A stretch of 64,000 bases of DNA, from IMG/VR virus record IMGVR_UViG_3300027542_000004, positions 32,655 to 96,654 of that record; one strand, given 5' to 3'. Shown piece by piece: positions 7,201 to 63,877 of the stretch; position 1 is the first letter of the stretch; each line of letters opens with the position of its first letter. Origin of the DNA: a virus (lineage: Duplodnaviria > Caudoviricetes). The position numbers were made by a program, and so were the translations under genes. The notes beneath the pieces were generated by a model. The model was not told the origin of the DNA, searched no databases, and saw only the letters and a list, made by a program, of their open reading frames with translations.

Positions 7201-7249
7201 ATTTGGTGGATAAAAGTAAAAGCATTAACTTTGCATCGTAATCAATAAC
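7201..7249 (+). promoter_or_regulatory. Bacteroidetes promoter plus leader; 49-bp perfect copy at 46157-46205
   Basis: ATTTG(-33)...TAACTTTG(-7)...CGTAATCAATAAC identical in both places. Confidence 0.85.
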
Positions 7250-7271
7250 AAACCCCAATAAGTAAGAAGTT

Positions 7272-7535
7272 ATGAAACTTAAAGACAATGGCCAAATCGC
7301 AATCGACTCGGCAGACATACTGAAACAGAATCGCTATCGTTTTGAAATCGATACAGAAGACATCGTGATGGGCTTCGCTAAAACGATGAAAACGACAACG
7401 CGCAACGTTCAAAAAGCAATCAACATGATTAAAAAGGTGTGCAACGACTGCGGCACTTTCATCTCGCCCAGTGTGCGCATTGTAAGCGTCAGAATGTATC
7501 AGAACAACGAACTCGTTAAATCCCTTAACGCTTAA
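7272..7535 (+). CDS. Hypothetical protein
   Basis: First ORF after promoter. Confidence 0.7.
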   Translation: MKLKDNGQIAIDSADILKQNRYRFEIDTEDIVMGFAKTMKTTTRNVQKAINMIKKVCNDCGTFISPSVRIVSVRMYQNNELVKSLNA

Positions 7536-9222: not shown

Positions 9223-9281
9223 AATTACTTGATGAAACAAAGATATTGATTACAAGCGTCTTCATACGCACTTATTGGGTA

Positions 9282-9311
9282 GCCTCGGCACTGCGCCGGG
9301 GCTTTTCTTTT
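9282..9311 (+). terminator. Intrinsic terminator
   Basis: GCCTCGGC-loop-GCCGGGGC followed by T-rich run. Confidence 0.75.
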
Positions 9312-9371: not shown

Positions 9372-9403
9372 TTTGCACAATTAAAGTATTTACTTTAACT
9401 TTG
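9372..9403 (+). promoter_or_regulatory. Bacteroidetes promoter
   Basis: TTTG ... TAACTTTG, followed by GTAATCAATAAC leader. Confidence 0.75.
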
Positions 9404-9438
9404 CAGTGTAATCAATAACACCAATATAAGTGAACAGT

Positions 9439-9702
9439 ATGGATACGACTAAAGAACTGAACGCAAGACTTGAGATAGTAAACCTCAAGGGATACAGATT
9501 CAACACGCCCAAAGGCATCTGTACGATGCGCGGCTTCGCCTTTTTCATCAAGGGCAAGGGCTTTGTAAGATTCAAACATGACCTCCCCGGCGTACCTTAT
9601 GCGCCATGTGGCGGCAGAAAGGCGTTACTTTCAATCCTGAACAGTGGCGGCTTCGTGAACTATGACGGCTTAGAATTTACCAACCCTATCAGCGAAAACT
9701 AA
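9439..9702 (+). CDS. Hypothetical protein
   Basis: First ORF after promoter. Confidence 0.65.
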   Translation: MDTTKELNARLEIVNLKGYRFNTPKGICTMRGFAFFIKGKGFVRFKHDLPGVPYAPCGGRKALLSILNSGGFVNYDGLEFTNPISEN

Positions 9703-10175: not shown

Positions 10176-10186
10176 TCAGCAGCATC

Positions 10187-10438: not shown

Positions 10439-10646
10439 CAATCTCGTCATCAGCGAAAAGCGGAAGCCGACAGCCATAATCGGCTTATAATGGGCATGTA
10501 GTCACGTCTGCCGGGATTTGAATAGCAAAAGTTAAAGCATTTACTTTGTTAAATAATCTTAAATAAAAGTATTTTTCTTATATTATTATTTGGTAGATTA
10601 AAGTATTTACTATAACTTTGTAACCGTAATCAAAACCCAATAAGAT

Positions 10647-10850
10647 ATGAAGACTACAAACAACCCCTACAAGATTGAACATGTCAGCGATTTTGGCATG
10701 GCCTATTATCAGGTAGTGCGCAAGCGCGATGAAGCCATTCTCTACGCCAATAGCAACATTGACAACATCGCCTCTTTCATTCTTGACGAGGGCATCGACG
10801 TGGCCGGCTTTGACGCAGTGCCTGAATTTGCAAACAATCACGTTTTCTAA
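10647..10850 (+). CDS. Hypothetical protein
   Basis: First ORF after TAACTTTG promoter at ~10613. Confidence 0.65.
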   Translation: MKTTNNPYKIEHVSDFGMAYYQVVRKRDEAILYANSNIDNIASFILDEGIDVAGFDAVPEFANNHVF

Positions 10851-24252: not shown

Positions 24253-24271
24253 CCAATTAACCCCAACTGCA

Positions 24272-42035: not shown

Positions 42036-42332
42036 CTATGATTTTGGTGAATCATCATTTGCCACCACGGTAGGATTTAACCTGTATGTAGTTCCGCAGT
42101 TTGGGCAGGTAAAAGTGTTGGTATATTCTTGGCAGACAAGAACACCTACCGGCACACCTATTATATCCGCAATCTCTTGAAGCGTAGCCAATGTTGGATT
42201 CCCATTTATGATTTGGGATGCTGCGCTTTGAGTAATGCCTTTCTGACCATTCCTTCCGGTCATTTGCGAGGCAAGACGTTCAACAGTCCATCCTCGCTCC
42301 TTCATTACGATTCTTATAAAATTATTTGCCAT
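42036..42332 (-). CDS. Xre-family HTH regulator with CPNCG motif
   Basis: SQIINGNPTLATLQEIADIIGV. Confidence 0.85.
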   Translation of the reverse strand: MANNFIRIVMKERGWTVERLASQMTGRNGQKGITQSAASQIINGNPTLATLQEIADIIGVPVGVLVCQEYTNTFTCPNCGTTYRLNPTVVANDDSPKS

Positions 42333-42577
42333 AAGTTTTAACTGTATGTTTAGATGGTGCAAAATTAGTAAAAAATATTCAAACTACAAAATAAAATATT
42401 AGACATAACGAATAATTTTGCTTAAATGTTAATTTATACCTTAAAATTACCCCTATTTGTTAATAGTTGTTAAATGATTAGATAAAACTAATAAAATATT
42501 TGATAGTATAAGATAAAACTTATAACTTTGCATCGTGATTAAGAAAGACAGTTATTCACCCTGTAATAATAAGGAGT

Positions 42578-42910
42578 ATGAAGACAACAAGAAATAACCT
42601 GAAAGAAATCATGTCGATGGCATGGGCGTTTGTGAAGCGCAACGGCTTCACTATGGGCGAGGCACTTAAAGTCGCATGGCGCAACTACAAGCTGAAAAAC
42701 GCTATGCACGGCAAAATCGTAAAGTTCTACTTTCAAAAGGTAGATGGCACTTTGCGCGAGGCTTACGGCACATTAAAGGAGAATCTCCTGCCGGCTACAC
42801 AAGGCACTGGCAGACGTGCCAACGACACAGTGCAAACGTACTTCGACACCGAAAAAGGAGAATGGAGATGCTTTAAGAAAGCAAACCTCGTGCGCATCGC
42901 TAACGCATAA
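42578..42910 (+). CDS. DUF2693/WYL_2-like SH3-fold protein, paralog of 15009-15338
   Basis: KFYFQKVDGTLREAYGTL...YFDTEKGEWRCFK. Confidence 0.82.
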   Translation: MKTTRNNLKEIMSMAWAFVKRNGFTMGEALKVAWRNYKLKNAMHGKIVKFYFQKVDGTLREAYGTLKENLLPATQGTGRRANDTVQTYFDTEKGEWRCFKKANLVRIANA

Positions 42911-42989
42911 GACATCAAACCGGGGATGCTGTCAGCCACGGCATCCCCAGCCCCAAACATCAAACGTAATCAATAACACCAATAAGACA

Positions 42990-43229
42990 ATGAAAATAAT
43001 CGCTAACATCTTCTATGTAGGCCAAATCGTATTCTCAGCCGCCCTCGCTTTATGGGCGTTATACATGGCACTACGCGGCCTCTTTACCGGCGGGCCACTG
43101 TTCGTAACTATCTGCTTCGCCGTAATGACATGCACAACCTATTGCCTCATGTACGTGCCAAGTGTGCGCGAATACAAGGAGCATAAGGCAAGCCACAACA
43201 AAAAGACACAGACAGAGCAAAATGACTGA
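42990..43229 (+). CDS. Small two-TM membrane protein
   Basis: Hydrophobic; preceded by the shared leader motif. Confidence 0.6.
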   Translation: MKIIANIFYVGQIVFSAALALWALYMALRGLFTGGPLFVTICFAVMTCTTYCLMYVPSVREYKEHKASHNKKTQTEQND

Positions 43230-44874: not shown

Positions 44875-45126
44875 ATGGCACGACTGGATGAAGAAAGGCA
44901 AAAAGCGTTAGAGCCGGAACGCATACGCCACGCAATCAAGAAAATCACCGCCCTCGGCTATGAAATAACCGCGCAGGATAACACATCTATAAAGTTTATC
45001 CACAACGGCAAGACCGTGACATTTTACCCTTATAGCGGATGGGCGACCGGCGCAAGCATCAAAGATGGTAGAGGCTTGAAACATCTGCTATCATCACTGA
45101 AATCAAATCATCAACCAAATAAATAA
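44875..45126 (+). CDS. Hypothetical protein
   Basis: FYPYSGW..G....GRGL. Confidence 0.7.
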   Translation: MARLDEERQKALEPERIRHAIKKITALGYEITAQDNTSIKFIHNGKTVTFYPYSGWATGASIKDGRGLKHLLSSLKSNHQPNK

Positions 45127-45133
45127 TTGCACT

Positions 45134-45367
45134 ATGGCAGAAACAACCAACAAGAGTGCGGAAGTCGAAATCATCGGCGCAGCCGCAGAATCGTCAGAAA
45201 GCGAAATCGCACGTCTGACCGCAGAAAACAAAGAGCTGAAAGCTCGCGTAGAAACCCTTACACGCGACCGCGACCAGTATCTCAAGTGGTGGGGCGAAAG
45301 CAACTCGGAAAAGAACCGTCTGCTCAACGTCACAAAGTCACTTGTCGCATACAGCGGCCTCATCTAA
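45134..45367 (+). CDS. Small coiled-coil protein
   Basis: Heptad pattern. Confidence 0.6.
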   Translation: MAETTNKSAEVEIIGAAAESSESEIARLTAENKELKARVETLTRDRDQYLKWWGESNSEKNRLLNVTKSLVAYSGLI

Positions 45368-45453
45368 TCATCCCACTGTCGCCCGGTTGTATGTTGAAGC
45401 CGTGCAGCCGGGCGACCATTTAAATCCAAAATCAACTTAATCAAAGACCAGAT

Positions 45454-45720
45454 ATGAAAGCAAAAGAAATCATCGACAAGGAAGATAGAATGATGGCAAA
45501 CATCCGCGAGCTTATCCCTAAAATTGTGGGCATACGCCTTGAAGCCCAGAAAGCTGCATCGTGGATAAATAAGTATGACGCGGAACTTGCCACCGCATCA
45601 GAAGAAATGTCGGAAGCAATCGATGCCCTTTATCGTGCGGAAACCGCAATGGGCAATGCGCATCAGTATCTTCTTGTGTCGCAATCTACCATTAAGCACG
45701 GTCTTGATGCGGAAGCGTAG
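45454..45720 (+). CDS. Hypothetical protein
   Basis: ORF with A-rich leader. Confidence 0.6.
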   Translation: MKAKEIIDKEDRMMANIRELIPKIVGIRLEAQKAASWINKYDAELATASEEMSEAIDALYRAETAMGNAHQYLLVSQSTIKHGLDAEA

Positions 45721-45764
45721 CCGTTTATCATGGCCATGTGGAAAGAATTTACTATCTTTGCACC

Positions 45765-45888
45765 GCCATTCAAAGCTGGGAAGCTGACGGATGGCACTCA
45801 ATAGGTCTTCATACTTTTTGTTGACTTATTGGGTTATTGATTACACCGTGACCCCGGAAGCATCCACTACCGGGGTCACACTTTTTTG
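45765..45888 (+). ncRNA. Candidate trans-acting antisense sRNA
   Basis: TATCTTTG at 45753-45760; 5' hairpin; middle complementary to shared operon leaders; terminator GTGACCCCGG/CCGGGGTCAC plus T-run. Confidence 0.65.
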
Positions 45889-46156
45889 CTCAAGCGGATG
45901 CCGGCGACCTACTACACACAGGTCAATAAATCGCCATAGCCACGTCAAGACCATCAAGAGGCTAAATCCATCATCGCAACATCAGAAACGCGCCAGACGC
46001 GCCCAATAAGGCTTAAAGCGTTTACTATTATCGCTATCAAGACCACATAAAAGCAAACCCTTTTATTATTATAATAAGGTGTAATCAATGTAAAAGCATC
46101 TGCAATTACTAATAAATGTTAAATATAAGTGTTTGCTTTAATTTTTAGGTCAAAAA

Positions 46157-46205
46157 ATTTGGTGGATAAAAGTAAAAGCATTAACTTTGCATCGTAATCA
46201 ATAAC
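46157..46205 (+). promoter_or_regulatory. Promoter/leader, identical to 7201-7249
   Basis: 49-bp perfect direct repeat. Confidence 0.85.
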
Positions 46206-46239
46206 CACAATAAGTTAAACCCCTTAAACCCCAAACGTT

Positions 46240-47115
46240 ATGAAGACTCTTAACGACGAAATCAACGAAATCAAGGCTGCTAACACCAGCAAGAACTCAA
46301 AGAAAGCCGCCCTTGCCAAACTGGGCATCACACCCTACGAAATCGACATCATACTTGAGGGCGTTGAGTGCGCCACCCGTGGCCGTTTTACATTTGGCGT
46401 TGAGATAGAGTGCTTCGTCAATAGTGGCGCAATCAGAACAGCCGCAGAACACACCGGCATGGCCTACGAATACGAGGGCTACAACCACCGCGACGGTCAC
46501 GACTACTTCAAGTTTACCACTGACGCATCAGTGCGCGGCATGGCTGACCCCATCGAGTGCGTGTCACCGGTGCTTGCAGGCGTGAACGGCAAGAACACCC
46601 TTAAAAACGCCGTCAAGACGCTTAACACCGCCGGCGCAAACGTCAATCAAACATGCGGTCTGCATGTGCATATCGGTGCATCTAAACTGACCGCAAAGCA
46701 ATACTGCAACGTGTTTGTAAACTACGCCTACCTTGAGGCCGTCATAGATACCTTTATGGCCCGCTCGCGTCGCGCTGACAACGCCGGATACGCTCACACG
46801 CTGCAAGACCACATCTTCTATCTTGAAAGTGCCGTGACGGTTGAAGACATACGACGTGCCCTCTGCAACGACCGCTACCACAAAGTCAATGCCGAAAGCT
46901 ACCGCCGTCACAAGACCATCGAGTTTAGACAGCACGCCGGCACGACCAACTACGAAAAAATCATCAACTGGGTTAGCTTCTGCGGAAAGCTCGTCATCTG
47001 GTCAAAGAAAAACCGACTGACCGCCCCGGTAGCAAGCATCGACGAGATACCATTTCTCAACGCAGAGGAGAAGTCATTCTTTAAGGCACGTGCAAGCCAC
47101 TTTGCAAGCCTTTAA
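46240..47115 (+). CDS. Amidoligase family protein (COOH-NH2 ligase type 2)
   Basis: FGVEIE, DAS, E.VSPVL, CGLHVH.G, TIEFRQH.GT. Confidence 0.88.
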   Translation: MKTLNDEINEIKAANTSKNSKKAALAKLGITPYEIDIILEGVECATRGRFTFGVEIECFVNSGAIRTAAEHTGMAYEYEGYNHRDGHDYFKFTTDASVRGMADPIECVSPVLAGVNGKNTLKNAVKTLNTAGANVNQTCGLHVHIGASKLTAKQYCNVFVNYAYLEAVIDTFMARSRRADNAGYAHTLQDHIFYLESAVTVEDIRRALCNDRYHKVNAESYRRHKTIEFRQHAGTTNYEKIINWVSFCGKLVIWSKKNRLTAPVASIDEIPFLNAEEKSFFKARASHFASL

Positions 47116-47207
47116 GACATCAATCAGGGTCAGGGGTTGAAACATACCCCTGACACCGATTAAAACCCCTACAAGCATTTCTAAACATCAAAATAAAGAA
47201 TATCATT

Positions 47208-47768
47208 ATGTGCGTCATCATAGTAAAGCCGGCAGGCGTTAAAATGCCAGAAAACGACATCATCAAGGCAGCCTACAAAGCAAATCCCCACGGTTGCGGT
47301 TTCATATCCCCATCAACCTTTTATAAGGGGATGAGCTTCGATAGTTTCAAAAGACAACTGAAAAAGGTATCAGATGAAGAGCCTTGCATCATACATTTTC
47401 GCCTTGCGACACATGGCTCAATCAAGCGAGCCAACTGTCACCCCTTTAATCGTGGCGATGTATGGTTCGCACACAACGGAATACTAAGCATCATACCGCA
47501 GGGGGATATGACCGATAGCGAAACCGCTTTTCAGAATATCATCTACCCGGCTATTGAGAAATTTGGCTATGGGTCTATGCAGATGGATAGAGCCGTTTCA
47601 AAGGTCATTGGCTATTCAAAATTTGCCTTTTTGCAAGGCGATAAACTGAAAATGTATGGCGAGTTCATCAAGCAAGATGATGGATGCTATTATTCAAACT
47701 TGCGCTTTATGCCTTATGTGGGCTGGGTACGGAATAGCCGTCACCGGTCTTACGCAATGGGTTATTGA
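47208..47768 (+). CDS. Class II (Ntn) glutamine amidotransferase
   Basis: N-terminal MC, NPHG.G, HFR.ATHG, HPF, HNG, TDSE. Confidence 0.88.
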   Translation: MCVIIVKPAGVKMPENDIIKAAYKANPHGCGFISPSTFYKGMSFDSFKRQLKKVSDEEPCIIHFRLATHGSIKRANCHPFNRGDVWFAHNGILSIIPQGDMTDSETAFQNIIYPAIEKFGYGSMQMDRAVSKVIGYSKFAFLQGDKLKMYGEFIKQDDGCYYSNLRFMPYVGWVRNSRHRSYAMGY

Positions 47769-47900
47769 TTACATAAAAGTCATGGGGTTTAACCTATGCT
47801 TCGCCCTGACATTGGGCGAAATTACGACTACTTTTCAAAGGTAGCGATTAAGCGAGGTAACATTTGGGTTACTTCGCTTTTCTTTTGCGTCTTTTGCAGT

Positions 47901-50723
47901 ATGCTAACGATATACGATACCGCAAACGAGATACGTTTTCAGACACCCATCAATAAAGGCTCTAAAAGGGTCGTAGAGTTGATGGGGTCTGATTATGTTT
48001 TGCTTAAATTCAGCGTTAGCAAGCCTATTTACTTTCAGTTGGGCGATTGGTGCGATGTGCCGGGTTTTGGCCGCTTTGAATTGGTTGAGTTGTATAATCC
48101 CACTTACAACAAATCAACCGGGGGCTATGATTATGAATTAGAACTTGAAGCCTATTATTGTAAATGGCGAAATAAGATTTTCAAGTACACCCCTGAAACC
48201 GGTGGTCGCGAGGCTTCGTGGAGTCTTACTGCAACCCTTGATGTGCATTTAGGCGTATTTGTGCGCAATCTTAAAGCATTAGGATATAAGTACAACGAGC
48301 AGGAGTTTATCTTTTCAATAGATAGCACGGTCACGCAGTCAGCAAAACTTCTGACCTACAACAATACGGATATGATAACCGCCCTTAATATGATGGCGGA
48401 AGCGTGGGAGTGTGAATGGTGGATTGAAGACCATGTGATTTATTTTGGCAGATGTGAAATTGGCACACCGATTGACTTTGAGCAAGGCGTGAATGTGGCT
48501 GACATATCAAGTTCAGGCAATAAGAATGTTTACGCCACCAGAATCTATGCTTTTGGCTCAACGCGGAATATTCCCGTAAACTATCGCCCCGTTGATGAAA
48601 CCGTGGTTGTCAATGGCATCGTGCAGAAACGACTTATGCTCCCTGTCGGAACTCCCTATGTGGATGCTTATCCCAATATGCCGACTGAGGCAGCAGTGGA
48701 GCAGGTGGTGGTCTTTGATGACATATATCCACGGACTGACGGAACGATTGACTCTGTAAGCACATATACCGATACTGTCACAAACGATGATGGTACGACA
48801 AACACGGAAACATTCTATCGATTCAAGGATAACCATATTCAGTTTTCGCAGGATTACATTCTTGAGAATGAGGAACTTCACATCATTTTTCAGTCTGGTA
48901 AATTGAACGGATTGGATTTTGGCGTGATGTTTAATCCCCTCGGAGTGTCTGAAAAATTATCAGATGGTTCTTGGAATCCTGATGCGCAACTTTGGGAGAT
49001 TGTGGCAAATGAAGATTACGGAAGAAAGCTCCCCGATACGGTTCTATTGCCACAAGTTGGTGATAAATACGTCCTTTATGGATGGGATGCCACTAAAATA
49101 GCGTCATTGGGACTTATTGAAGATGCCGAGCAGGAACTACTTAAACGTACTGAGGAATATATAGCGAAAACGAAAGTTGACCCCAATAGCTATCCTTGTA
49201 CGATGATGTCGGATTGGATGAAAGAGCAAGGAGAAACACCTACCGGCTATTATTTCCCATTTGGTCTTGGCGACTGTGTGAATCTGATTAGTGATGCTTA
49301 CTTCGTTAATGGAAGCAGACAATCTCGCATTGTGGGGTATGAATGTCAGCTTGATTATCCTTATGACTCGCCCATAATCACAGTAGGTGAAACCCCTTCT
49401 ATATCACGATTAGGCGCGTTGGAAGATACCATTGAATCATTGACCTTGAAAGGACAGACTTTTGTAGGTGGAGGTAATGGTGGAGGTGGAAGCACGGTGT
49501 ATCTGATTACAACAAACGACACAACGACTCCAACCAATCGCAATGCCTTTTCTTCGCTTCGTTCATTGAAGGAATTTCTTAGTAAGACGAAAGCTGACCG
49601 TACACCATATCCCTTGAATGTCGGTGGAAAGCTGACAGGAGAGAAAGGTGTGCAGTTCGGTGATAGTTTTGCGGATGGTCTTACGGGCTTTGGTGGAATG
49701 GTAGATGAAGATGGCAATGGCTGGCTTGAAAGTCTTTCTCTTCGCAGATTCCTTGAGGTTCCTGAACTACGCTATAACCGTGTTGAGATTCAGATTGGCA
49801 ACAAGTGGAACGCTCCCGGTGGTGGTATCGTAGAACAGTGCATACCTGACCTTGATTCAGATGGCAATCCATTGATGACCGGTACTGTCATTCTTCATCT
49901 TGAGGATGGAGAAATCGGTACTGTTGCGATTGATGACATCTGCATGGGTATTTTCCACGACGGATATACACAATCAAACAACTCAACGGCAGACTATGAT
50001 GATTCCATTGGAAATTTTCATTTTGCCGGCTTCTATACTGCATATTTCAGAATCACCGACATTTTAGAAACTGGTCGCAATAGCAAATTTCGCTATATGC
50101 TCCGTGCGGTGTCGGATAGATGGAAGATGAAGTTTCATCCTTGTGAGGCTATGCACTTTGTAGGTTATGGAAACTTCACCGATACCAACCGTCAGACATC
50201 CCGATATTCTACCCGGACTTATGAACGCTATCTTAAAGGCGTGAATGATTGGGAATTTACCGCCAACAATATCGGTGCGCAGTTTGGTGACTTGAGTAAT
50301 CTCTCCGTATTCGGATTGTTTATGACCGGTTATTCTGCATATCTGAATAACATCTATATGACTGGTGTCATAGAACAAACTCAAGTGCTTCCCATCCGAA
50401 TGGAAATTACGACAAATGGTGACGGCTTCCTTGCTTATGGCGAATCAATGGAAGTAACGTGTCGGGTCTATCAAGGGTGGAAAGAAATAACCGACCAGAT
50501 AACCGATTGGACTATTACACGCGATAGCGGTGAGGCTGTGAATGATGCTGCTTGGCAGCTTAAACAAAAGGTAAAGGATTTTGACGGAACAATAACCCTT
50601 ACATACACAGATACAGATAACGACCTCGGTACAAATCCGAACTCAATCAGCACCTTATTCACGATGGTTGCAAAAATTGACGGGGATGATGTGGCGCAGG
50701 CTCAACTAATAGCAGCACCATAA
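47901..50723 (+). CDS. Tail tip/baseplate-hub protein (Bacteroidales type)
   Basis: ATRIYAFGSTRN.P, VVFDDIYPR, D.DGNG.LESL..R.FLEVPEL; ATG 47901. Confidence 0.8.
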   Translation: MLTIYDTANEIRFQTPINKGSKRVVELMGSDYVLLKFSVSKPIYFQLGDWCDVPGFGRFELVELYNPTYNKSTGGYDYELELEAYYCKWRNKIFKYTPETGGREASWSLTATLDVHLGVFVRNLKALGYKYNEQEFIFSIDSTVTQSAKLLTYNNTDMITALNMMAEAWECEWWIEDHVIYFGRCEIGTPIDFEQGVNVADISSSGNKNVYATRIYAFGSTRNIPVNYRPVDETVVVNGIVQKRLMLPVGTPYVDAYPNMPTEAAVEQVVVFDDIYPRTDGTIDSVSTYTDTVTNDDGTTNTETFYRFKDNHIQFSQDYILENEELHIIFQSGKLNGLDFGVMFNPLGVSEKLSDGSWNPDAQLWEIVANEDYGRKLPDTVLLPQVGDKYVLYGWDATKIASLGLIEDAEQELLKRTEEYIAKTKVDPNSYPCTMMSDWMKEQGETPTGYYFPFGLGDCVNLISDAYFVNGSRQSRIVGYECQLDYPYDSPIITVGETPSISRLGALEDTIESLTLKGQTFVGGGNGGGGSTVYLITTNDTTTPTNRNAFSSLRSLKEFLSKTKADRTPYPLNVGGKLTGEKGVQFGDSFADGLTGFGGMVDEDGNGWLESLSLRRFLEVPELRYNRVEIQIGNKWNAPGGGIVEQCIPDLDSDGNPLMTGTVILHLEDGEIGTVAIDDICMGIFHDGYTQSNNSTADYDDSIGNFHFAGFYTAYFRITDILETGRNSKFRYMLRAVSDRWKMKFHPCEAMHFVGYGNFTDTNRQTSRYSTRTYERYLKGVNDWEFTANNIGAQFGDLSNLSVFGLFMTGYSAYLNNIYMTGVIEQTQVLPIRMEITTNGDGFLAYGESMEVTCRVYQGWKEITDQITDWTITRDSGEAVNDAAWQLKQKVKDFDGTITLTYTDTDNDLGTNPNSISTLFTMVAKIDGDDVAQAQLIAAP

Positions 50724-51928
50724 TGGAAATATCAAAAAAAAGAATAAGAATAGACTATGCACCTCTTAACGTGGCTGTTTCGGTGGTCAACATCACCCCT
50801 AACAGTCCGGTGGTGCAAGTATATAATGGCTTTACAAATCAGTATGAGCCTAATCGCGCACTTTCACCAACAGTGATTCTTCCTCAAGTAGTGGCAAGTG
50901 CCGCAGATAATAGTTGGGGCGACCCACATTCAAATCACGCTCTTGCTGATATGAAGTGGTTTGCCAATGGTGAAGACATTTCCACGCTTCCTGAATGGGA
51001 AAATCTTTATTCTATCAATCAGACCGGCTCACTACGTGGTGCGCTTTCAGTAATGCGCAACTTCTCACCGGGTGAACAGGTATCATTGCATTTTGAGGGA
51101 GTCCTTGCAGACAATCGATTAGGCGTTAACATTCCTATCAAGACCGAGCCTATTGTGTTATCATGCTCTGACAAGTCGCATAATATGTATTCACTTGGCA
51201 TAGGTGACGATATGATTATCCAATACAATCCTTTCAAGGATAAGCTTTTCCTCTATGAATATAAGACATCCCACGGATTGCAGACAGCATCATCATCAGC
51301 GCAGACAGCCGCAACGGATGAAAACGCCTATAACCGCGTTATCCCGGTATCCTTATACAGTGGTGATAAAGTCATAACAACAGGATATAACATAAAATTA
51401 TTCCGAGTGAATACCGCTACATCATTCACTGAATTGACCGCAGGAGAAGATGAAGTAATCGCTATTGCACCCACTCAGATAACATTAGACTTACGTCTGA
51501 TTCATAAATCTGATTATGTGATTCGGGCCTATGCGGAAAATAGAGAAGTGGCAATGGTTCAGTTCTCGGTCAATCGTCTGAATCCACGATACACAATCCG
51601 AATGACAAACGGAACAGACATTAGCCCATTTGACACGATGCGCTATGACGAGGTTATGGTGGATTATGACGGAAACGTTGTGGATTGTCCGGGTAGCCTT
51701 ATCAGGATTCTTTGGTATGCTGATACCTACGCTAAAACCAATGTGCTTCTGAATGAGGGTGATGTAACACAGTTTCTTCTTTCATTGACCGGAATAGGCT
51801 CGTCTTACAACGATTCGTGGATTGAACTGCATACTATGTCAGAACTCAAGGAAGCACACTGCATTGCAACCGATGAAAACAATGACATCTTTACGGATGA
51901 GAATGGTAACGATTTAATTTTCAACTGA
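50723..51928 (+). CDS. Minor tail protein
   Basis: Position; QVY......YEP.R...P. Confidence 0.7.
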   Translation: MEISKKRIRIDYAPLNVAVSVVNITPNSPVVQVYNGFTNQYEPNRALSPTVILPQVVASAADNSWGDPHSNHALADMKWFANGEDISTLPEWENLYSINQTGSLRGALSVMRNFSPGEQVSLHFEGVLADNRLGVNIPIKTEPIVLSCSDKSHNMYSLGIGDDMIIQYNPFKDKLFLYEYKTSHGLQTASSSAQTAATDENAYNRVIPVSLYSGDKVITTGYNIKLFRVNTATSFTELTAGEDEVIAIAPTQITLDLRLIHKSDYVIRAYAENREVAMVQFSVNRLNPRYTIRMTNGTDISPFDTMRYDEVMVDYDGNVVDCPGSLIRILWYADTYAKTNVLLNEGDVTQFLLSLTGIGSSYNDSWIELHTMSELKEAHCIATDENNDIFTDENGNDLIFN

Positions 51929-52137
51929 TGAATTACATAATTGCAGACAAAACAAAGGCCGTTAACTACGGATTCCAAGTTGAAACCCATGTATGTAATG
52001 GGGATATGATGTGTATCAATGAAAAGGAATTGATGAACTCGGTTTGTATTTCCGGTACACTTAAAGAACGTGCTGATAAATTGAATGGCGTAGTGTGCGA
52101 CCAGTATGATGCACTTGCTTTTATCAACAATAAATAA
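51928..52137 (+). CDS. Hypothetical protein
   Basis: TGATG coupling within tail operon. Confidence 0.6.
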   Translation: MNYIIADKTKAVNYGFQVETHVCNGDMMCINEKELMNSVCISGTLKERADKLNGVVCDQYDALAFINNK

Positions 52138-52149
52138 ATCTGAAATAAT

Positions 52150-53181
52150 ATGTCTTACAGCGCACAAGGTAGTATTACAATTAAGCGATTAAGGAATGGT
52201 GATACATTCTTTATTTCGCTTGAAATCGCCAATGGCATCCCCCTCTATCAAGGTGTGGATGACAAGTCAGGCACAGTATCTCCTGATTGGACGGTTGCAG
52301 CCAACCAACCTATCATCGTTCCCAATGTGACATCTGCAAGAGGCGCATCTGTGGCTTTGTCATTCCACCAATGGCAATACAACGGAGTCACCCTTAATTT
52401 TAATAGTACAACTGATGCGGATGGGTATCGGCTTGACAGTACGGGAGTGTTCAAGATGAACACAATCACCGGGGCATTACGAATCGTTAAGAACCTTGCA
52501 AGTTCAACTAATATCGCCAACGATACGCTTTCTTATTCTTGCGTGGCAACCGTAGGCGGTACGGAATACAACCTGCAAAAATCCATCGATGTGCTTATTC
52601 AGACTGTCGGTGCTACTTCTTATGCCGGTTATGTAAACGCAACCACCGAGCAGCTTACATCCGACATCACTTCAACCGTGCTTTCCACTAAGTTATGGCT
52701 TGGTGCATCGGAACTGACCAACTATTATGTGAAATGGTATAGGGATAACACCCTTTGGAGTGCTAAGAACGGTATGAAGTCCATCACTGTCACAAATGCG
52801 GATGTTGACGGCACTCAGTTGTTTATCGCTGAATTTTATAAGGATTCTTCCAGCACAACCCCAGTATTCAGAGCCGGAATACGCATTATCGACACATCGG
52901 ATGACTATCAAGTTATCTGCTTCATTTCTTCTACACAAAAGGATGTTGATACCGGTAGCCCTGTAACAGTCAAGGCGAAGATAGTTCGCTTCCTGCCCGA
53001 TGGCTCAAATCAAGAAATCACGCCAACTGGTGTAAAATGGCGAATGGATGTGATGGATAGGAAAACATGGTCAGTCGTCAAGACTGCAAATGCCAACACA
53101 ATTCAAGTCACCACAACCGAAACCGACCGTAATGGTGAAATGGGTGATGTTGAAGTCGTGGCAGAAGCAGAGTGGAATTAA
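52150..53181 (+). CDS. Minor tail protein with Ig-like repeats
   Basis: T/S/V-rich beta repeats; AQGSITI.R N-terminus. Confidence 0.7.
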   Translation: MSYSAQGSITIKRLRNGDTFFISLEIANGIPLYQGVDDKSGTVSPDWTVAANQPIIVPNVTSARGASVALSFHQWQYNGVTLNFNSTTDADGYRLDSTGVFKMNTITGALRIVKNLASSTNIANDTLSYSCVATVGGTEYNLQKSIDVLIQTVGATSYAGYVNATTEQLTSDITSTVLSTKLWLGASELTNYYVKWYRDNTLWSAKNGMKSITVTNADVDGTQLFIAEFYKDSSSTTPVFRAGIRIIDTSDDYQVICFISSTQKDVDTGSPVTVKAKIVRFLPDGSNQEITPTGVKWRMDVMDRKTWSVVKTANANTIQVTTTETDRNGEMGDVEVVAEAEWN

Positions 53182-53210
53182 CACTAACAACTTAATACAA
53201 ACGCAATAAT

Positions 53211-54545
53211 ATGGCTAAAAAGAATCTTGGAAACGCCACACTTGTGCCTTCTATTCAGAAGAATAACGGTGTGATGGTTGAGGTAAATGGTTCTGTCCGC
53301 AGAATCACCCTTGACAACTTTATGAACTCAATGAACACCGATGACGAGCAGTTGCTTCGTCAGATAGCATGGGGTGTTCCTATTAAGCAAGGCACCAGCA
53401 GTCCAGAATGGGGCGTTATCGGTAATACCGGTATGTGGAACGAATACAAGTCTATGGTCGGTCGCTATCTCGTTACCAACGATGGTAAAGCTGCCAAACT
53501 TTCGCCCGTCAACTCAGGTGTCTTTGCTGACGGAACTACCCTTGATGAAACAAAGGGTCATGTGATGGTCATTGCTCCCCGGCTTTACTACACAGTTAAG
53601 CGTGATGCCGCGTCTGGGGTTGATTACCTTTGGATGTCGATGCTTCCAATCGGAGGGCATTTCATCGGTGATGCGGACGGAGGTGATTACATCTGCGTAG
53701 GCGCATATAAGGCTTCGCTTGCAGGAGCAGCATTGACTTCTCGTTCAGGAGTAAGACCCGCTGGTTCGCGTACAATCTCGCAGTTCTGGACTGATGCACA
53801 GGTAAACGGAAAGAACTGGGGTCTTGTCAACTATGACCATCGCCGCTTTATGATGATGCTTTGTCTTTCGCAGTATGGTAGCCCCAACGCGCAGGATAAA
53901 ATCGGTCAGGGCGTTAGTGGCTCGGGCGGTTGGAAAGACCTTTGGGTAGGTACTACAAGCCTCCTTACCGGTGCGACAAAATCACTCGGTGATAACAACG
54001 GAAAGATAAACATTACAGTCACGAATGGCACGGTTGTAGGCGTGGATTGCTCACGTGTCAATCTGAACGGATTTGAAGACGCATGGGGCTGGCAGTGGGA
54101 GATGATTCAGGGTGCATACTTCGGAAATTCTGAAAACACTGCTCAAACGGGAAACGAGTTCTATATCTATGAGGGCAACCGTATGCCGTCATACGCTGAA
54201 TTGGCTACACACCCATCGGGTAAGTATCGCCAGACTGTCAGACGCACCCTTTCAGCAAACAGTGAGGGATATGTCACAAAGATGATGCTTGGCGAATACT
54301 TCGACCTTATCGCAACTACTTTGGGCGGAGGAAGTAATTCATACTGGTGCGACTATGAATATGCCAATAACACTGGTCAACTGCTGCTCTGGGGTGGTGC
54401 TGCGGATCGCGGTTCGTCTTGCGGTCTCGGTTACGTGCACTCGCGGCACGCTTTCTCGCGCTCGTATGCGTATTGCGGCTCTCGCCTTGCTTATTATGGC
54501 CCCCTTACCTTTATGGACGGAAAGCAACTGATGGCTACTGTCTGA
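53211..54545 (+). CDS. DGR target protein (putative receptor-binding tail protein)
   Basis: G.E..WG..WE and GG......CG......GSRL C-lectin-like end; contains the VR. Confidence 0.88.
   Translation: MAKKNLGNATLVPSIQKNNGVMVEVNGSVRRITLDNFMNSMNTDDEQLLRQIAWGVPIKQGTSSPEWGVIGNTGMWNEYKSMVGRYLVTNDGKAAKLSPVNSGVFADGTTLDETKGHVMVIAPRLYYTVKRDAASGVDYLWMSMLPIGGHFIGDADGGDYICVGAYKASLAGAALTSRSGVRPAGSRTISQFWTDAQVNGKNWGLVNYDHRRFMMMLCLSQYGSPNAQDKIGQGVSGSGGWKDLWVGTTSLLTGATKSLGDNNGKINITVTNGTVVGVDCSRVNLNGFEDAWGWQWEMIQGAYFGNSENTAQTGNEFYIYEGNRMPSYAELATHPSGKYRQTVRRTLSANSEGYVTKMMLGEYFDLIATTLGGGSNSYWCDYEYANNTGQLLLWGGAADRGSSCGLGYVHSRHAFSRSYAYCGSRLAYYGPLTFMDGKQLMATV
54381..54486 (+). repeat. DGR variable region (VR)
   Basis: 106-bp ungapped match to TR; 14 mismatches, all at TR adenines. 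Confidence 0.96.
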
Positions 54546-55132: not shown

Positions 55133-56334
55133 ATGATGACTATCAAGCCATTTGAAGATATACAATGGGAATCAATGACCTATGAAGAAATTGATTCGCT
55201 TCTTATAGAGCGTATCCGCATCTATGAGGAAGCCATTGCTATGCGTGGCGGTAAGCGTCCAAAACGTGAGGGCTTCATAATGGAACGTATTGCCAACATC
55301 GACAATCTACGTCTTGCTGACCGAAAGGCACAAGAGGGCAAGGCAAAACGTCTCATCATCGTCAATGGAAAAGAGGTAAGGATACCAAATAAGTACATTC
55401 AGGCACACAATGAAAACGCAGAAGCCGAATTGCGTGAGTTGCAAAAGATGATTCTGACCTTGAAATTTCCACCGCCTAATTACAGAAGTGAATATCTCAG
55501 GACTGATGCAGGAAAGGTAAGGGAGCTTATAAAGCAGAATTATTATCCGTGGCGAATATTGCAACACGCCATCATGCTGGTTGTATCCCCTCGGATTTTC
55601 GCAAGTCTGATAATGGATACTTTTGCCTGTATCAAGGGTAAAGGTTTGCATTTCGGTGTTAAACGTGTTCAGCGGACTTTGCGCAGACATCCTGAACTTA
55701 AATGGTTTTGGAAAACTGATTTTAAGAAATACTATCAGAGTCTGCCTCATGACCTTGTAAGGTCATCTTTGGAACGCCTTTATAAAGACAAGATGTTTCT
55801 TCGACTAATCGACATGGTAATACTTGCCTATGATAGTGGAGAAGAAATCATAAAAGAATTGGAAAATCAATAAAGCAAACTTTCGCACGAAAAGCAAAAC
55901 GAATAACAGATGAAAAGCGTAGGCGTGAAGTCCTTGCCTCCTATTGGGGATGGTGTAAATGGGGTCACTGCCGAAACTTATGGAACAAATTAACGAATAA
56001 CGACATGAGCTTTGCAGATATAGGAGTATCCGGTCGTGTTACGACAAAAGACGGTCAACAGTTCTTCGATGTTAAGAAGATAAAGATTGATAGCATTCTT
56101 AATCTTCCCATCAAGGTGGAAAAGTTTCAAACCGATGTCAAAACCCAACATGGTAATGGAAGATATGTTGTTCTGATTGAATACAATGGTGAGAAGTGTA
56201 AATTTATCACCAATTCTTTCACCTTGAAGAATATGCTTGACCAAGCAGCCAAGATAGAAAACGCCTTTCCGATTTCAACCGTTATCAAGAAACGTGACAT
56301 CGGAGGCAAGTTTCCCGATTACTATTTTGAATAA
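55133..56334 (+). pseudogene. DGR reverse transcriptase with internal deletion; N-part 55133-55873, C-part ~55864-56334 in another frame
   Basis: RILQHAI, ACIKGKG.H and KTDFKKYY.S present; GxPIG and YxDD absent; KSIKQ...ASYWGWCKW thumb continues in frame into the 56005 ORF. Confidence 0.82.
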
Positions 56335-62340: not shown

Positions 62341-62374
62341 TATTTTGCAAGTGGTTGATTTTCAGTAAGGGTTG

Positions 62375-62461
62375 CGGAAAGACAGGGATTCGAACCCTGG
62401 GTACACAGAAGTGTACAACGGTTTTCGAGACCGTCCCGTTCGACCGCTCCGGCATCTTTCC
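62375..62461 (-). tRNA. tRNA-Ser (anticodon CGA), prophage integration site
   Basis: GGAAAGA/TCTTTCC acceptor stem, ACGGT-CTCGAAA-ACCGT anticodon arm, long variable arm, GGTTCGAATCC. Confidence 0.95.
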
Positions 62462-62701: not shown

Positions 62702-63877
62702 TTATTCATTGTCAAGATGAATAAGTCTTTTGAAACATTTGATCAATTCTGCATCGCCTGTGTGTTTGCCTTTATCCTCACTGATTTTGCACGTCTGACA
62801 ATAGAATGGCCAAGACTCCGTGATTTTGACATCTGTGAGTTTTATGACGATGTTCATTGGCTTTATTCCATCGAAGTCATTGGTGAAGTGCGTGCCAATT
62901 CCGAAGGATGGAATACATTTCCCTTTGGCATACTCCTGTATCTCCAATGCCTTGTCCACGTTTAGGCCGTTGCTGAAGACCACCTGCTTTGTGGTCGGGT
63001 CGATTTTAAGGGATTCATACTTGCTGATTATCAAATCAAGCTGCTCGAAATTGTCGCCGCTGTCAACCCTAAGCCCTTTGAACATGTTGGCATAATCCTC
63101 GGAGAAATTCAAATTGAATATCTGCCAGCCATACGTGTCGTAAAGAAAAATACCCAAAGCTCCACGATAGGTCTGCGCCCATCTCTCCATTGCTATATGG
63201 TTTGCCATTTGCGGGCCATACATCCCGGCAATAGCACTGATGAATTCATGGGCCATAGTCCCGATGGGAGTGAGGTCGTATTTCATTGCGAAGTAGACGT
63301 TGCTTGTGCCCATGAAACATCCCGGCATACTTCTTGAACGTTGGCATTCCGCCATGGCACCAATCGTCAGATCCTGGGCTTTGAGTGAAGCCCTCCGTCG
63401 TGTCCCCATGTCGCTGAATGTGCAGCCGGCTTCAAGCAGTCTCTTGGCCTTTTCATGGGATTTGTCGTAATATCCGGCAAAATCAAATTCCGCAGCCTGC
63501 CCCGTCATTTCGTAGTATAGCTCGGAGATTATGGCCAGAACCTTTACTTCAAGCAGAATTGTATTGCTCCAGCATCCTTCAAATTCCACAAGCAGATGTC
63601 CTTCCTCATTCTGTGAAGCCTTTACCCAATGACGACTGTATCGGAATCCACGCAAGAAGTTGTAGAACCATGCCGGGATATACCGGCATCTGTAGCGCAT
63701 AAATGCAATTTCTTCCTCTGTGATGGTCAAGGTTTCCAAGAGTGCGACCTGCCGCATCAACTCTTCTGCAAAGCCGGAAGGGTATACCGTATTGTTGCGG
63801 TCGTTGAATCTGTATTTCACCTGAGCACGTGGAAAGTTTTCAATCACGGCGCAGCACATTGTGAATTTATATAACAA
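62702..63877 (-). CDS. pncB: Nicotinate phosphoribosyltransferase (host), N-terminus apparently disrupted
   Basis: LYKFTM, D.GTRRR, GTSN, GTMAHE, R.DSGD, SFGIGT. Confidence 0.88.
   Translation of the reverse strand: MLYKFTMCCAVIENFPRAQVKYRFNDRNNTVYPSGFAEELMRQVALLETLTITEEEIAFMRYRCRYIPAWFYNFLRGFRYSRHWVKASQNEEGHLLVEFEGCWSNTILLEVKVLAIISELYYEMTGQAAEFDFAGYYDKSHEKAKRLLEAGCTFSDMGTRRRASLKAQDLTIGAMAECQRSRSMPGCFMGTSNVYFAMKYDLTPIGTMAHEFISAIAGMYGPQMANHIAMERWAQTYRGALGIFLYDTYGWQIFNLNFSEDYANMFKGLRVDSGDNFEQLDLIISKYESLKIDPTTKQVVFSNGLNVDKALEIQEYAKGKCIPSFGIGTHFTNDFDGIKPMNIVIKLTDVKITESWPFYCQTCKISEDKGKHTGDAELIKCFKRLIHLDNE

Follow-up and report, generated by a model that had tools for sequence, protein, structure and literature searches.

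The window, by which we mean the entire 64-kb stretch of phage DNA analyzed here, contains what is probably a structured small-RNA gene of ~123 nt (45765-45887, plus strand) carried by a Muribaculaceae prophage. On the plus strand, positions 45753-45887 comprise a -7 box of the Bacteroidota type (TATCTTTG), a pair of hairpins, a stretch left single-stranded and, at the 3' end, an intrinsic terminator (Table 1). An earlier note on this DNA had described the -7 box, the 5' hairpin with its inner AGCT/AGCT stem and GGGA cap, a U-rich middle and a 10-bp terminator stem with a T run, and all of these were present in the sequence, the U-rich stretch lying after hairpin 1. This terminator serves the upstream operon (genes to 45720) as well: no other was found between the stop codon of that operon at 45718-45720 and 45848-45887, and the element sits between this last stop codon and the terminator that it shares with the operon. 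A simple terminator scan missed the stem-loop at 45848-45879 because its loop is longer than the 8-nt limit of the scan.

Table 1. Features of the candidate small-RNA gene, the shared leaders and the further anti-leader copies (positions in the window).
Feature	Position	Strand	Description	Basis
Promoter + leader, operon 7272-9222	7202..7274	+	Predicted net binding -16.9 kcal/mol, rank 3	
Second, rearranged anti-leader piece (ATTGATTAC, GTCTTCAT, ACTTATTGGGT)	9241..9311	+	Directly 5' of the terminator of operon 7272-9222	
Promoter + leader, gene starting 9430/9439	9372..9441	+	Predicted net binding -21.7 kcal/mol, rank 1	
Promoter + leader (variant GTAATCAAAACCC), gene at 10647	10589..10649	+	Predicted net binding -15.5 kcal/mol, rank 4	
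Leader without promoter	42966..42992	+	Behind hairpin 42921-42947; predicted net binding -14.8 kcal/mol, rank 5 of 156	
Upstream block GTGGAAAGAATTTAC-TATCTTTG-cacc	45736..45764	+	Conserved; holds -7 box TAnnTTTG (45753-45760)	
Hairpin 1	45765..45795	+	7-bp outer stem GCCAUUC/GGAUGGC; inner stem AGCU/AGCU; tetraloop GGGA	Fold
Hairpin 2	45796..45834	+	ACUCAAUAGGUC paired with GACUUAUUGGGU	Fold
Mini-ORF ATGAAGACCTATTGA (MKTY*)	45798..45812	-	Unconserved; judged non-coding	
Single-stranded seed UAUUGAUUACACC	45835..45847	+	Unpaired in minimum-energy and centroid folds	
Intrinsic terminator	45848..45887	+	10-bp G+C-rich stem (arms GTGACCCCGG, 45848-45857, and CCGGGGTCAC, 45870-45879), then T run TTTTTT (45882-45887)	Fold
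Promoter TTTG-N20-TAACTTTG + leader GTAATCAATAACCACAATAAG.. + start codon, amidoligase gene (46240-47115)	46158..46242	+	Predicted net binding -18.1 kcal/mol, rank 2 of 156	
Third anti-leader copy, GGTTATTGATTAC	47760..47772	+	Lies across the GATase-like gene's stop codon; 3' end of the amidoligase-GATase pair	

Read as its reverse complement, the element resembles a 5' leader (GTAATCAATAAC..CAATAAG..ATG) found after each of six near-identical phage promoters. This had been reported earlier for the reverse complement of 45806-45846, which is GTGTAATCAATAACCCAATAAGTCAACAAAAAGTATGAAGA and does resemble the shared leader. Five of the leaders are inside the window and the sixth is ~2 kb before its start, at position 30655 of the 96.6-kb record; the leader at 42966 sits inside the operon whose 3' end is the element, and it is a predicted target in cis or in trans. 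When the anti-leader was aligned locally with the six leaders the scores were 38-45, compared with 12.4 ± 3.1 for random 60-nt windows of the record. The 13-mer GTAATCAATAACC occurs nine times in the window with up to two mismatches, a count that none of 100 shuffled sequences reached (1.78 ± 1.36). Seed and leader share a perfect 13-mer match, as the seed together with the stem bases GGU gives GGUUAUUGAUUAC (45832-45844), which is exactly complementary to leader bases +1 to +13. The loop of hairpin 2 (UUCAUACUUUUUGUU) bears an anti-start-codon CAU (45810-45812). Hairpin 2 hides most of the complementarity, of which only TATTGATTACACC (45835-45847) is left single-stranded, and this locking away was counted against reading the element as a small RNA.

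Binding of the RNA to the 156 start regions of the record was predicted as cofold net energies, which replaced RNAduplex-type energies because the latter, taking no account of accessibility, gave long meaningless duplexes. The six leader genes occupied ranks 1-6 (-21.7 to -11.5 kcal/mol), the best non-leader start region had -9.7 kcal/mol, and the median over all 156 was -2.9 (sd 3.2). The mean for the six leaders was -16.4 kcal/mol, and when the core of the RNA was shuffled it was -7.0 ± 1.7, with none of 60 shuffles reaching the observed value. Complementarity to several translation-initiation regions is therefore beyond chance. The earlier note had further claimed that the complementarity covers the starts of the genes at 10647, 42578 and 46240; the genes at 10647 and 46240 are indeed among the top-ranked targets, but for the gene at 42578 the leader match is confined to the surroundings of the start codon (score 23), and the predicted binding ranks 10th of 156. 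In three host genomes GTAATCAATAAC has 23 copies, 18 of them in the prophage region, and the likely targets are therefore phage genes. The genes of the target operons belong to no family of known function, with the exception of the amidoligase, the GATase-like gene and a DUF3846 gene. Overall, we give an even chance to the element being an anti-leader sRNA that acts in trans to repress several operons of the phage.

The TAnnTTTG consensus of the -7 box matches the promoter consensus described for Bacteroides (PMC7366714), and it occurs only 36 times on the plus strand of the 64-kb window. In all nine distinct variants of the element it stands 4 nt 5' of hairpin 1, despite a diverged upstream flank, and this spacing is the same as that in the leader promoters (TAACTTTG, 4-5 nt, then G), on the basis of which we predict that the 5' end of the RNA is at 45765. 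No -33 TTTG was found upstream of the -7 box of the element. A second way to draw the upstream block is as a "hairpin 0" (GUGGAAAGA..UCUUUGCAC) whose 3' arm overlaps the -7 box, and this would fit an RNA starting further upstream, that is, a 3'UTR. In hairpin 0, 93.1% of the alignment cells pair, and its count of compensatory pairs was reached by 256 of 500 shuffles.

The 3'UTR alternative is that the RNA is never separate and instead forms the structured 3' end of an operon transcript, which extends from the 42499 promoter, through the 42966 leader, to the terminator. Pairing with a 5' or internal leader of the same transcript would then auto-repress translation or close the mRNA ends for stability, for which 5'-3' UTR pairing, reportedly found in Staphylococcus icaR, would be a model. 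We consider this unlikely, for reasons that have to be set against several observations in its favor. Since there is no terminator from the stop codon at 45720 to the element, read-through transcripts must contain the element, and binding of the 42966 leader is predicted at -14.8 kcal/mol. In addition, the record has three anti-leader copies (9241-9253, 45832-45844 and 47760-47772), and all of them are at the 3' ends of leader-headed modules, such that three of the six modules end in such a copy (leader 7238 with 9241-9253, 42966 with 45832-45844, and 46194 with 47760-47772). Two of the three copies are without a promoter. All 10 relatives that have the region retain TTGATTACA at 47760-47772, where the GATase-like gene stops, and four of them retain the full 13-mer. 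On account of this placement, cis pairing or a DNA-level repeat fits these copies at least as well. However, the invariant TAnnTTTG at the spacing of real promoters in 9/9 variants, which in hairpin 0 falls partly in the loop rather than the stem, and the failure of the hairpin 0 compensatory pairs to exceed those of the shuffles, argue against a purely cis-acting element. So does the prediction that four leaders on other transcripts bind as strongly as, or more strongly than, the leader of the operon itself. For the piece at 9241-9311 no promoter box was seen. That its predicted binding was not leader-specific, apart from that to the 10647 start, also speaks against the cis reading. Neither this piece nor that at 47760-47772, nor hairpin 2 or the sixth leader, had appeared in the earlier note.

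Several lines of evidence point to the plus strand as that of the RNA. The element folds on that strand at -54.8 kcal/mol (z = -8.6; none of 200 shuffles was as good), compared with -40.9 kcal/mol (z = -4.4) for the minus-strand RNA of the window, and the folding energy was lower on the plus strand in 9/9 variants. The alignment contains 28 G-U cells, with 98.1% of cells pairing on the plus strand versus 88.5% when read on the minus strand. Coding readings of both strands were rejected. The minus strand had been said to encode only MKTY* and to have no promoter box, and this held, with no TAnnTTTG on that strand from 45000 to 46400. The mini-ORF gives MKTY* in the window type and in L003, reads on in L005, L016 and L018, and gives MRQ* in L021; an ORF on the plus strand (45791-46009) has lost its ATG in 5/9 variants, and window-type variants differ by a 1-nt indel.

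The nine variants were obtained from 16 loci and the window, all of them in prophages of Muribaculaceae and related Bacteroidales, and wherever the flank is long enough, the same 88-aa gene is on one side of the element and the amidoligase gene on the other. Of the 269 cells of the structure 98.1% pair, and 11 of its 31 pairs change on both sides; the paired fraction, the number of compensatory pairs and the covariation score were each reached by 0/500 shuffles, in an alignment that had been fitted to the structure model, and in slid controls 33-44% of cells paired. In hairpin 1, whose tetraloop is GCGA in variant L003, two-sided changes were found in 3/6 outer and 1/3 inner pairs. In hairpin 2 they were found in 5/11 pairs, with 98.9% of cells pairing, and L021 has a wholly different hairpin 2 sequence that is still paired. 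The 8-pair terminator stem had 100% of cells paired and two compensatory pairs. The seed is the most conserved part of the RNA, and the core TTGATTACA and the GTT at the foot of hairpin 2 are invariant, such that a conserved structure is combined with an accessible seed. Together, these data support a conserved, structured plus-strand RNA element with a conserved -7 box and terminator. They bear out in part the inference of the earlier note, in which a single RNA silences many early operons for lysogeny maintenance, timing or superinfection immunity.

A search of the phage collection by blastn with 45300-46400 gave no match. An exact-pattern scan of IMG/VR for the seed region found six loci, comprising three known relatives and three unrelated coding matches, and a looser three-block pattern found ten loci, among which only the three known relatives match model R1. 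Among 151 genomes of the family of G001, model R1 matched G001 alone, together with one false match (a terminator after a chaperonin gene), and it had no match in Bacteroides phage BS-TP2, the closest isolated phage by terminase (67.5% identity).

The same comparisons bear on whether the element is a functionless relic, an inverted duplication of a hairpin-leader-start module that by chance came to lie before a terminator. The minus strand does read like the 42966 module (hairpin, leader, then ATGAAGAC), and the rearranged copy at 9241-9311 has probably decayed. A relic is nevertheless extremely improbable, as compensatory changes keep the RNA structure in lineages whose amidoligases are only 69-80% identical, the seed is the most conserved part, and it is the ORF that has decayed while the RNA fold is intact. 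The outcome that the earlier note had named as a refutation, relatives revealing an inverted remnant of a normal gene start, was accordingly not borne out.

The seed falls into four lineage-specific 13-mer classes (AATAACC, AAAACCC, AATAACA and AGTAACC), and the first 13 nt of the neighboring amidoligase leader mirror it exactly in 9/9 variants. The L005 clade has, 54 kb away, a leader with 19-20 nt in common as well. By contrast, the seed variant of L003 matches the adjacent amidoligase leader only, and four other leaders keep AATAAC, a pattern to be expected from local gene conversion or from a recombinase site. For the AGTAACC class the comparison consists of one leader, as no further phage leaders were found in the other contigs of G003. 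The seed co-varies with the shared leaders.

This co-variation might also arise at the level of DNA. The seed (45832-45844, minus strand) and the amidoligase leader (46194-46206, plus strand) form a 13/13 inverted repeat with 349 bp between its arms, in a segment that encloses the terminator and the promoter at 46158-46189. Invertons are common in Bacteroidales, and the segment could be an invertible promoter switch of this kind, or a recombination scar maintained by gene conversion, with the complementarity as a by-product. The arms are identical over 13-17 nt in 9/9 variants and across all four lineage-specific classes, the L003 variant is common to the adjacent seed-leader pair only, and the size of the segment, its flanking repeats and its enclosed promoter suit an inverton, being like the short perfect inverted repeats that surround promoter segments of a few hundred bp in the invertons of Bacteroidales. 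Furthermore, inverted junctions would resemble normal modules (a promoter, leader and ATG on the minus strand, and a hairpin and leader as at 42966). With the seed as a repeat arm and the further copies at 3' ends, neither of which the earlier note had taken into account, cis-acting or DNA-level readings also fit. We nonetheless find a DNA-level origin improbable. A single orientation was found in 16/16 loci and the window, and the inverted-junction pattern had no match in IMG/VR, although both are weak tests in that assemblies hide minor forms; likewise, no strand-changing joint was present in the contigs of four sequencing runs that were probably of DNA, and contigs drop rare forms. There is no Resolvase in the record, and its only Phage_integrase match is ~78 kb away, at 350-886 of the record; a recombinase, if there is one, may be a host-encoded invertase. 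A DNA repeat would also leave the -7 box, hairpin 1 with its GNRA loop, the strand bias of the G-U cells and the compensatory changes of hairpin 2 unexplained, and, unlike an inverton arm, the seed is part of a conserved, structured and terminated RNA. The idea of cassette mobility via the repeats was rejected: in the one module difference examined, G156 lacks window positions 9714-10848, and the break points (9713/10849, with a 19-bp overlap) are not at repeats. A role of the leader core as operator DNA (a dimeric HTH site) found no support, the core being only weakly palindromic as judged by eye (6/10).

The order of promoter, ~120-nt structured RNA and strong terminator ahead of a block that reaches the tail genes (47796-54545) and the holin is reminiscent of the lambda PR'-6S RNA-tR' arrangement and the HK022 put RNAs. 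The element could accordingly be the short terminated transcript of a regulated read-through module, with antitermination control of downstream late genes as its real role. This is very improbable in our view, as a separate consensus promoter at 46158-46189 serves the downstream block, no antiterminator gene was identified, and the exact complementarity and co-variation of seed and leader would remain unexplained.

If the element is instead the trans-acting anti-leader sRNA that we favor, its transcription would start at a -7 promoter of its own, of the sigma-ABfr type, and some of the RNA might in addition be cut from read-through transcripts of the upstream operon. The RNA would consist of a 5' hairpin with a GNRA-type cap, a second hairpin, the 13-nt single-stranded seed and the intrinsic terminator. 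Its exposed seed (UAUUGAUUAC) would pair with the extreme 5' ends (GUAAUCAAUA..) of the mRNAs from the six near-identical phage promoters, and the pairing would spread, by the opening of hairpin 2, across CAAUAAG to the start codon, where CUUCAU in the hairpin 2 loop faces AUGAAG. The resulting duplex would block translation initiation and might perhaps be exposed to RNase. By such base pairing the RNA probably damps the messages of all six promoters; the outcome would be a joint down-regulation of small accessory-gene cassettes and of the amidoligase-GATase pair, with a possible role in timing or immunity. A more far-reaching version, which seems to us rather doubtful, is that, in a phylum without Hfq, one prophage-encoded master anti-leader RNA constitutes a system of immunity and specificity: it would recognize the 5' extremity common to all accessory or early promoters of its phage type and hold these down in the lysogen and in superinfecting kin. 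Diversification of seed and leader would then create heteroimmune lineages, and the 3'-end copies would add cis pairing.

On our comparison, no known RNAs come closer to the element than two immunity RNAs, c4 of phage P1 and CI of phage P4. The c4 RNA of P1 and P7 (immI) is a ~80-nt structured antisense RNA whose loops pair with repeated sites over a ribosome-binding region, and its complementary bases set the specificity of immunity. RNase P releases it, and its target sites are on the c4 transcript itself, upstream of icd-ant. The element matched no family of Rfam 15, which includes phage antisense RNAs: at gathering scores only a tRNA was found in the window, and E values up to 10 gave four chance-level matches in 45650-45950, the best being rncO (E 0.27; 15.8 bits versus a gathering score of 43).

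The P4 CI RNA is a small antisense RNA that acts on repeated complementary sites (seqA/seqC) to shut down phage genes, and it lies within, and can derive from, the transcript that it controls (PMC4825925). The element is located where read-through transcripts of the operon with the complementary internal leader at 42966 would pass. CI differs in being produced by processing only and in causing premature transcription termination in one operon of a proteobacterial satellite phage, whereas the element has a candidate promoter of its own and has as its sites the extreme 5' ends and start codons of up to six separate operons. There is no sequence or Rfam relation between the two, and the phylum of the present host differs in being without Hfq and ProQ, the classical sRNA chaperones; extended seeds are thought usual in Bacteroides (PMC7366714). 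Among the trans-acting sRNAs of Bacteroides, GibS is like the element in its sigma-ABfr -7 promoter, which in the element is a candidate one, and in its intrinsic terminator, single-stranded extended seeds and independence of Hfq, but it is chromosomal and regulates metabolism (PMC7366714). There is no homology to GibS, and R1 matches are confined to this prophage lineage among the 151 genomes searched. DicF, IsrK and svsR are likewise prophage-encoded small RNAs that act by base pairing, svsR limiting infection by other phages (PMC12803456). They act mostly, however, on host genes or on a single phage gene, in Hfq-containing enterobacteria, whereas the motif complementary to the element is concentrated in the phage. 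A literature search turned up no description of a regulatory RNA in any Bacteroidota phage.

If the proposed function is correct, a single RNA would control a whole set of phage operons via their shared 5'-terminal leader, in a compact device for timing or immunity. It would also present a natural case of seed-target co-diversification that is directly testable with compensatory mutants. Should the repeat instead turn out to act as an inverton or as a clamp between 5' and 3' UTRs, the regulatory layout would remain unusual among phages. Muribaculaceae are a dominant family of the mouse gut, and the RNA would give a handle on prophage regulation in them. Experiments are feasible, as the prophage or a close relative was found in the records of three cultured strains, Lepagella muris NM04_E33, Muribaculaceae isolate-036 and Paramuribaculum intestinale DSM 100749.

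The interval 45753-45888 very probably holds a conserved, structured plus-strand RNA element that is complementary to leaders shared by several phage genes. Its -7 box, hairpin 1 and terminator with T-run were all located where the earlier note had placed them, and the reverse complement of 45806-46 read, as claimed there, as the leader followed by ATGAAGA. The fold contained in addition a helix absent from that description, hairpin 2. The plus-strand RNA 45765-45888 had a folding energy of -54.8 kcal/mol (z = -8.6), and the minus-strand fold was poorer (-40.9, z = -4.4). The loop of hairpin 1 is GGGA, or GCGA in the relative locus L003, caps which we take to be of the GNRA form.

Table. Features of the element, the leader promoters, the anti-leader (leader-complementary) copies and the right end of the window
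Feature	Position	Strand	Basis or setting
-7 box TATCTTTG	45753-60	+	sequence
Hairpin 1	45765-95	+	sequence, fold
Hairpin 2	45796-45834	+	fold
Unpaired 13 nt UAUUGAUUACACC	between hairpin 2 and terminator	+	fold
Terminator stem-loop, then T6	45848-79, 45882-87	+	sequence, fold
Promoter family TTTG-N20-TAACTTTG, conserved spacer	7202-7233, 9372-9403, 10589-10620, 46158-46189; record ~30620	+ in window	
Anti-leader copy	9241-53	+	before terminator of operon 7272-9222
Anti-leader copy	45832-44	+	in element
Anti-leader copy, perfect seed 13-mer GGTTATTGATTAC	47760-72	+	across GATase-like gene stop codon, 1.57 kb 3' of matching leader 46194
tRNA-Ser(CGA)	62374-62461	-	right end of window
Nicotinate phosphoribosyltransferase gene	62702-63877	-	right end of window

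Relatives were sought via two neighbours of the element, the amidoligase gene beside it and the 88-aa gene upstream. The element was present in all five of the six IMG/VR loci that extended far enough upstream, in six of 19 loci from GTDB genomes (two were too short upstream and 11 differently arranged) and in all three metagenome loci; in total, 16 loci and the window gave nine distinct sequence variants. In the 11 differently arranged loci, from more distant relatives, the amidoligase gene directly adjoined that of a CI-like repressor, without the element. Alignment to R1, a covariance model built of the element, had 98.1% of 269 cells paired and 11 of 31 pairs changed on both sides (three in hairpin 1, one in its inner stem, five in hairpin 2 and two in the terminator), figures inflated by the fitting; an unfitted MAFFT alignment gave the same helices with nine compensatory pairs. 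None of 500 shuffles attained the observed paired fraction, compensatory-pair number or covariation score, and slid controls had 33-44% of cells paired. These compensatory changes would be left unexplained if the element were a functionless relic, which we consider less likely.

The plus strand was assigned based on 28 G-U cells, the paired fraction (88.5% on the minus strand) and a folding energy lower on the plus strand in 9/9 variants. Coding was rejected on either strand. The minus-strand MKTY-stop, previously described as all that this strand encodes, is present in the window but is not conserved, being replaced in the L005 clade by a frame that stays open and in L021 by MRQ-stop; the plus-strand ORF 45791-46009 has lost its ATG in five of the nine variants. 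A 1-nt indel between window-type variants also counts against coding.

Because Muribaculaceae and further Bacteroidales, Paramuribaculum intestinale and Lepagella muris among them, appear in the record titles of related genomes, we applied the Bacteroidota promoter grammar; according to an excerpt of PMC7366714, TAnnTTTG occupies -7 in it, and a TTTG near -33 is variable. A scan of the window with TTTG-N18-22-TAnnTTTG returned seven plus-strand and two minus-strand sites. Near-identical promoters make up four of the seven (7202, 9372, 10589 and 46158); 4-5 nt 3' of each comes GTAATCAA[TA]AAC..CAATAAG..ATG, and the family heads cassettes of small ORFs. A fifth leader, at 42966, lies behind a hairpin and has no promoter, and a sixth promoter and leader are at record position 30655, ~2 kb before the window start. 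By the spacing rule of the element's promoter, leader transcripts would begin at the G of GTAATC. The shared leader was therefore real, in view of these promoters and of nine copies of its 13-mer (<=2 mismatches) where 1.78 +/- 1.36 were expected. Its match to the anti-leader also held for the six leaders (alignment scores of 38-45, where random windows scored 12.4 +/- 3.1), but for gene 42578, another start that the earlier note had named, similarity of the 42499-promoter leader was confined to the start-codon region (score 23). The leader-headed genes are mostly small ORFs without a family match, the exceptions being a DUF3846 gene, the amidoligase gene and the GATase-like gene; calling them "early" is a guess. 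The promoter repeat is also a break point of public-run assembly contigs (loose ends 46152-46213). At 42921-42992 (+), a G+C-rich hairpin lacking a T run precedes the promoterless leader in mid-operon, a layout matching the element's minus-strand reading; processing or re-initiation may take place there.

The unpaired stretch of the element (the seed) and the last three stem bases are perfectly complementary to leader bases +1 to +13. CAATAAG has its complement in the 3' arm of hairpin 2, and the CAU in the loop of that hairpin faces the start codon. Net binding was predicted for 156 start regions across the whole record as the cofold energy less that of each RNA folded alone, so that the cost of opening hairpin 2 was counted. 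The six leader genes took ranks 1-6, with values of -21.7 (9430), -18.1 (46240), -16.9 (7272), -15.5 (10647), -14.8 (42990) and -11.5 (the gene after record 30655); the best other region reached -9.7, and the median over regions was -2.9 (sd 3.2). With the RNA core shuffled, binding to the six leaders averaged -7.0 +/- 1.7, compared with -16.4 observed, which 0/60 shuffles attained.

Comparison of the variants indicates that the seed co-varies with the leaders in four 13-mer classes: GTAATCAATAACC (window, L001 and L002), GTAATCAAAACCC (L003), GTAATCAATAACA (L005, L016, L017 and L018) and GTAATCAGTAACC (L021). The adjoining amidoligase leader carries the same 13 nt as the seed class in 9/9 variants. 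In the L005 clade this identity extends to 17 nt (13 in L017, whose one mismatch falls at position 14, where the two RNAs would form a G-U pair), and a leader 54 kb off has 19-20 nt in common with the seed. Based on these sequence comparisons, the best single reading, with an even chance of being correct, is that the element is a trans-acting repressor of several operons. The RNA would pair from the message 5' end towards the start codon, and leader-headed messages would be repressed jointly; we favor repression over activation because the start codon would be covered and the leaders are A-rich. Since 18 of 23 copies of the 12-mer GTAATCAATAAC in three host genomes are inside the prophage, any targets would be phage genes, unlike those of the prophage sRNAs DicF, IsrK and svsR, which act mainly on host genes.

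Alternatively, the seed-leader identity may reflect a DNA-level repeat, maintained by local gene conversion or by an inverton. A 349-bp segment with the terminator and promoter 46158-89 is bounded by the seed and the amidoligase leader, which are the arms of a perfect 13-bp inverted repeat, and the AAAACCC of L003 is confined to this adjacent pair while four other leaders keep AATAAC, as such a process would predict. The record's three minus-orientation leader-core copies, all at 3' ends of leader-headed gene modules, suit this reading too. An inverton, however, is opposed by the single orientation in 16/16 loci and the window, by the lack of IMG/VR matches to the inverted-junction pattern and of a strand-changing joint in public-run assembly contigs, and by the record having no Resolvase and its only integrase-family match 78 kb off; it would also leave hairpin 1, the strand bias and the promoter box unexplained. 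In the one module difference examined, genome G156 (holding L078) lacks 9714-10848 (1.13 kb, including promoter 10589 and leader 10626) with a junction overlap of 19 bp, and its break points are not at leader repeats, contrary to a DNA-level repeat.

The same three copies would fit 5'-3' pairing in cis. At 47760-72, TTGATTACA is kept in 10/10 relatives and the full 13-mer in four; this may be a cis 5'-3' pairing site. The anti-leader piece at 9241-9311 (+) is rearranged (ATTGATTAC, GTCTTCAT, ACTTATTGGGT), is identical in the two relatives' records holding it (three loci) and lies directly 5' of the operon terminator; it has no promoter box. Its predicted binding is leader-specific for the 10647 start only, which argues against cis pairing.

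TAnnTTTG lies 4 nt 5' of hairpin 1 in 9/9 variants and is kept although the sequence just 3' of the upstream stop codon is divergent. The box-to-hairpin 1 spacing equals the box-to-leader spacing at leader promoters, which predicts an RNA start at G45765. The -33 TTTG is absent from this candidate promoter, and RNAalifold drew a hairpin 0 (GUGGAAAGA..UCUUUGCAC) in which the -7 box forms the 3' arm; this hairpin has 93.1% of cells paired and three pairs changed on both sides, but these changes represent one split between two clades, and 256/500 shuffles equal its compensatory-pair count. Both features suit the cis, 3'UTR reading, and because of them the RNA may arise from its own promoter, from the 3'UTR of the operon that starts at the 42499 promoter and includes the 42966 leader, or from both. 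The candidate RNA promoter (45748-45764, +) reads TTTACTATCTTTGCACC, and that of the CI-like HTH gene (42036-42362), at 42360-42390 (-), reads TTTACTAATTTTGCACC; in L021 the RNA promoter is identical to this 17-mer. This weakly hints that the RNA and the CI-like repressor have a common promoter type.

A read-through module like lambda 6S or put is less likely, as it would not explain the conserved complementary seed. By working principle, the trans-acting repressor would be closest to the P4 and P1/P7 RNA immunity factors. The P1/P7 c4 RNA and the P4 CI RNA are both small phage RNAs that hold phage genes off through short complementary sites present in repeated copies. According to an excerpt of PMC4825925, processing of the immunity transcript yields the P4 CI RNA, whose pairing partners are seqA and seqC. 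In contrast to both, the element has its own candidate promoter, its predicted targets are 5' termini of several separate operons, and its host phylum is a different one, described in an excerpt of PMC7366714 as without Hfq and ProQ. The element is outside both families, based on this layout and host phylum and on an Rfam search that gave no family match. A limited literature search found no regulatory RNA of Bacteroidota phages and no shared-leader antisense RNA. RNA regulation is almost unexplored in this phylum and phage group, and the element is accessible in lysogens, as the prophage or a close relative is present in records titled as cultured strains.

The window, the final 64 kb of the 96.6-kb record, encodes a terminase, portal, capsid protein, several Cro/CI-type HTH proteins, a helicase, tail proteins, a DGR-type reverse transcriptase and a holin. 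The tRNA-Ser(CGA) and nicotinate phosphoribosyltransferase genes are probably host flank at the right prophage border; the sole integrase-family match is at the far left (record 350-886). The reverse transcriptase (phrog_1423, E 4e-35) adjoins large tail-fibre-like proteins (55133-55873, + and 56775-59399, +), and together they are probably a diversity-generating retroelement. The first gene of the operon ending at the element (42578-42910, +) encodes a WYL_2 protein with an Sm-like SH3 barrel (PF10902, E 7e-25), and a role as the element's RNA-binding partner is pure speculation. The Amidoligase_2 gene and a class-II glutamine amidotransferase-like gene (46240-47768, +) are directly 5' of tail genes, and 24167-24973 (+) encodes a protein with a Tad2-like (anti-Thoeris) domain and a crAss001_48-related domain.
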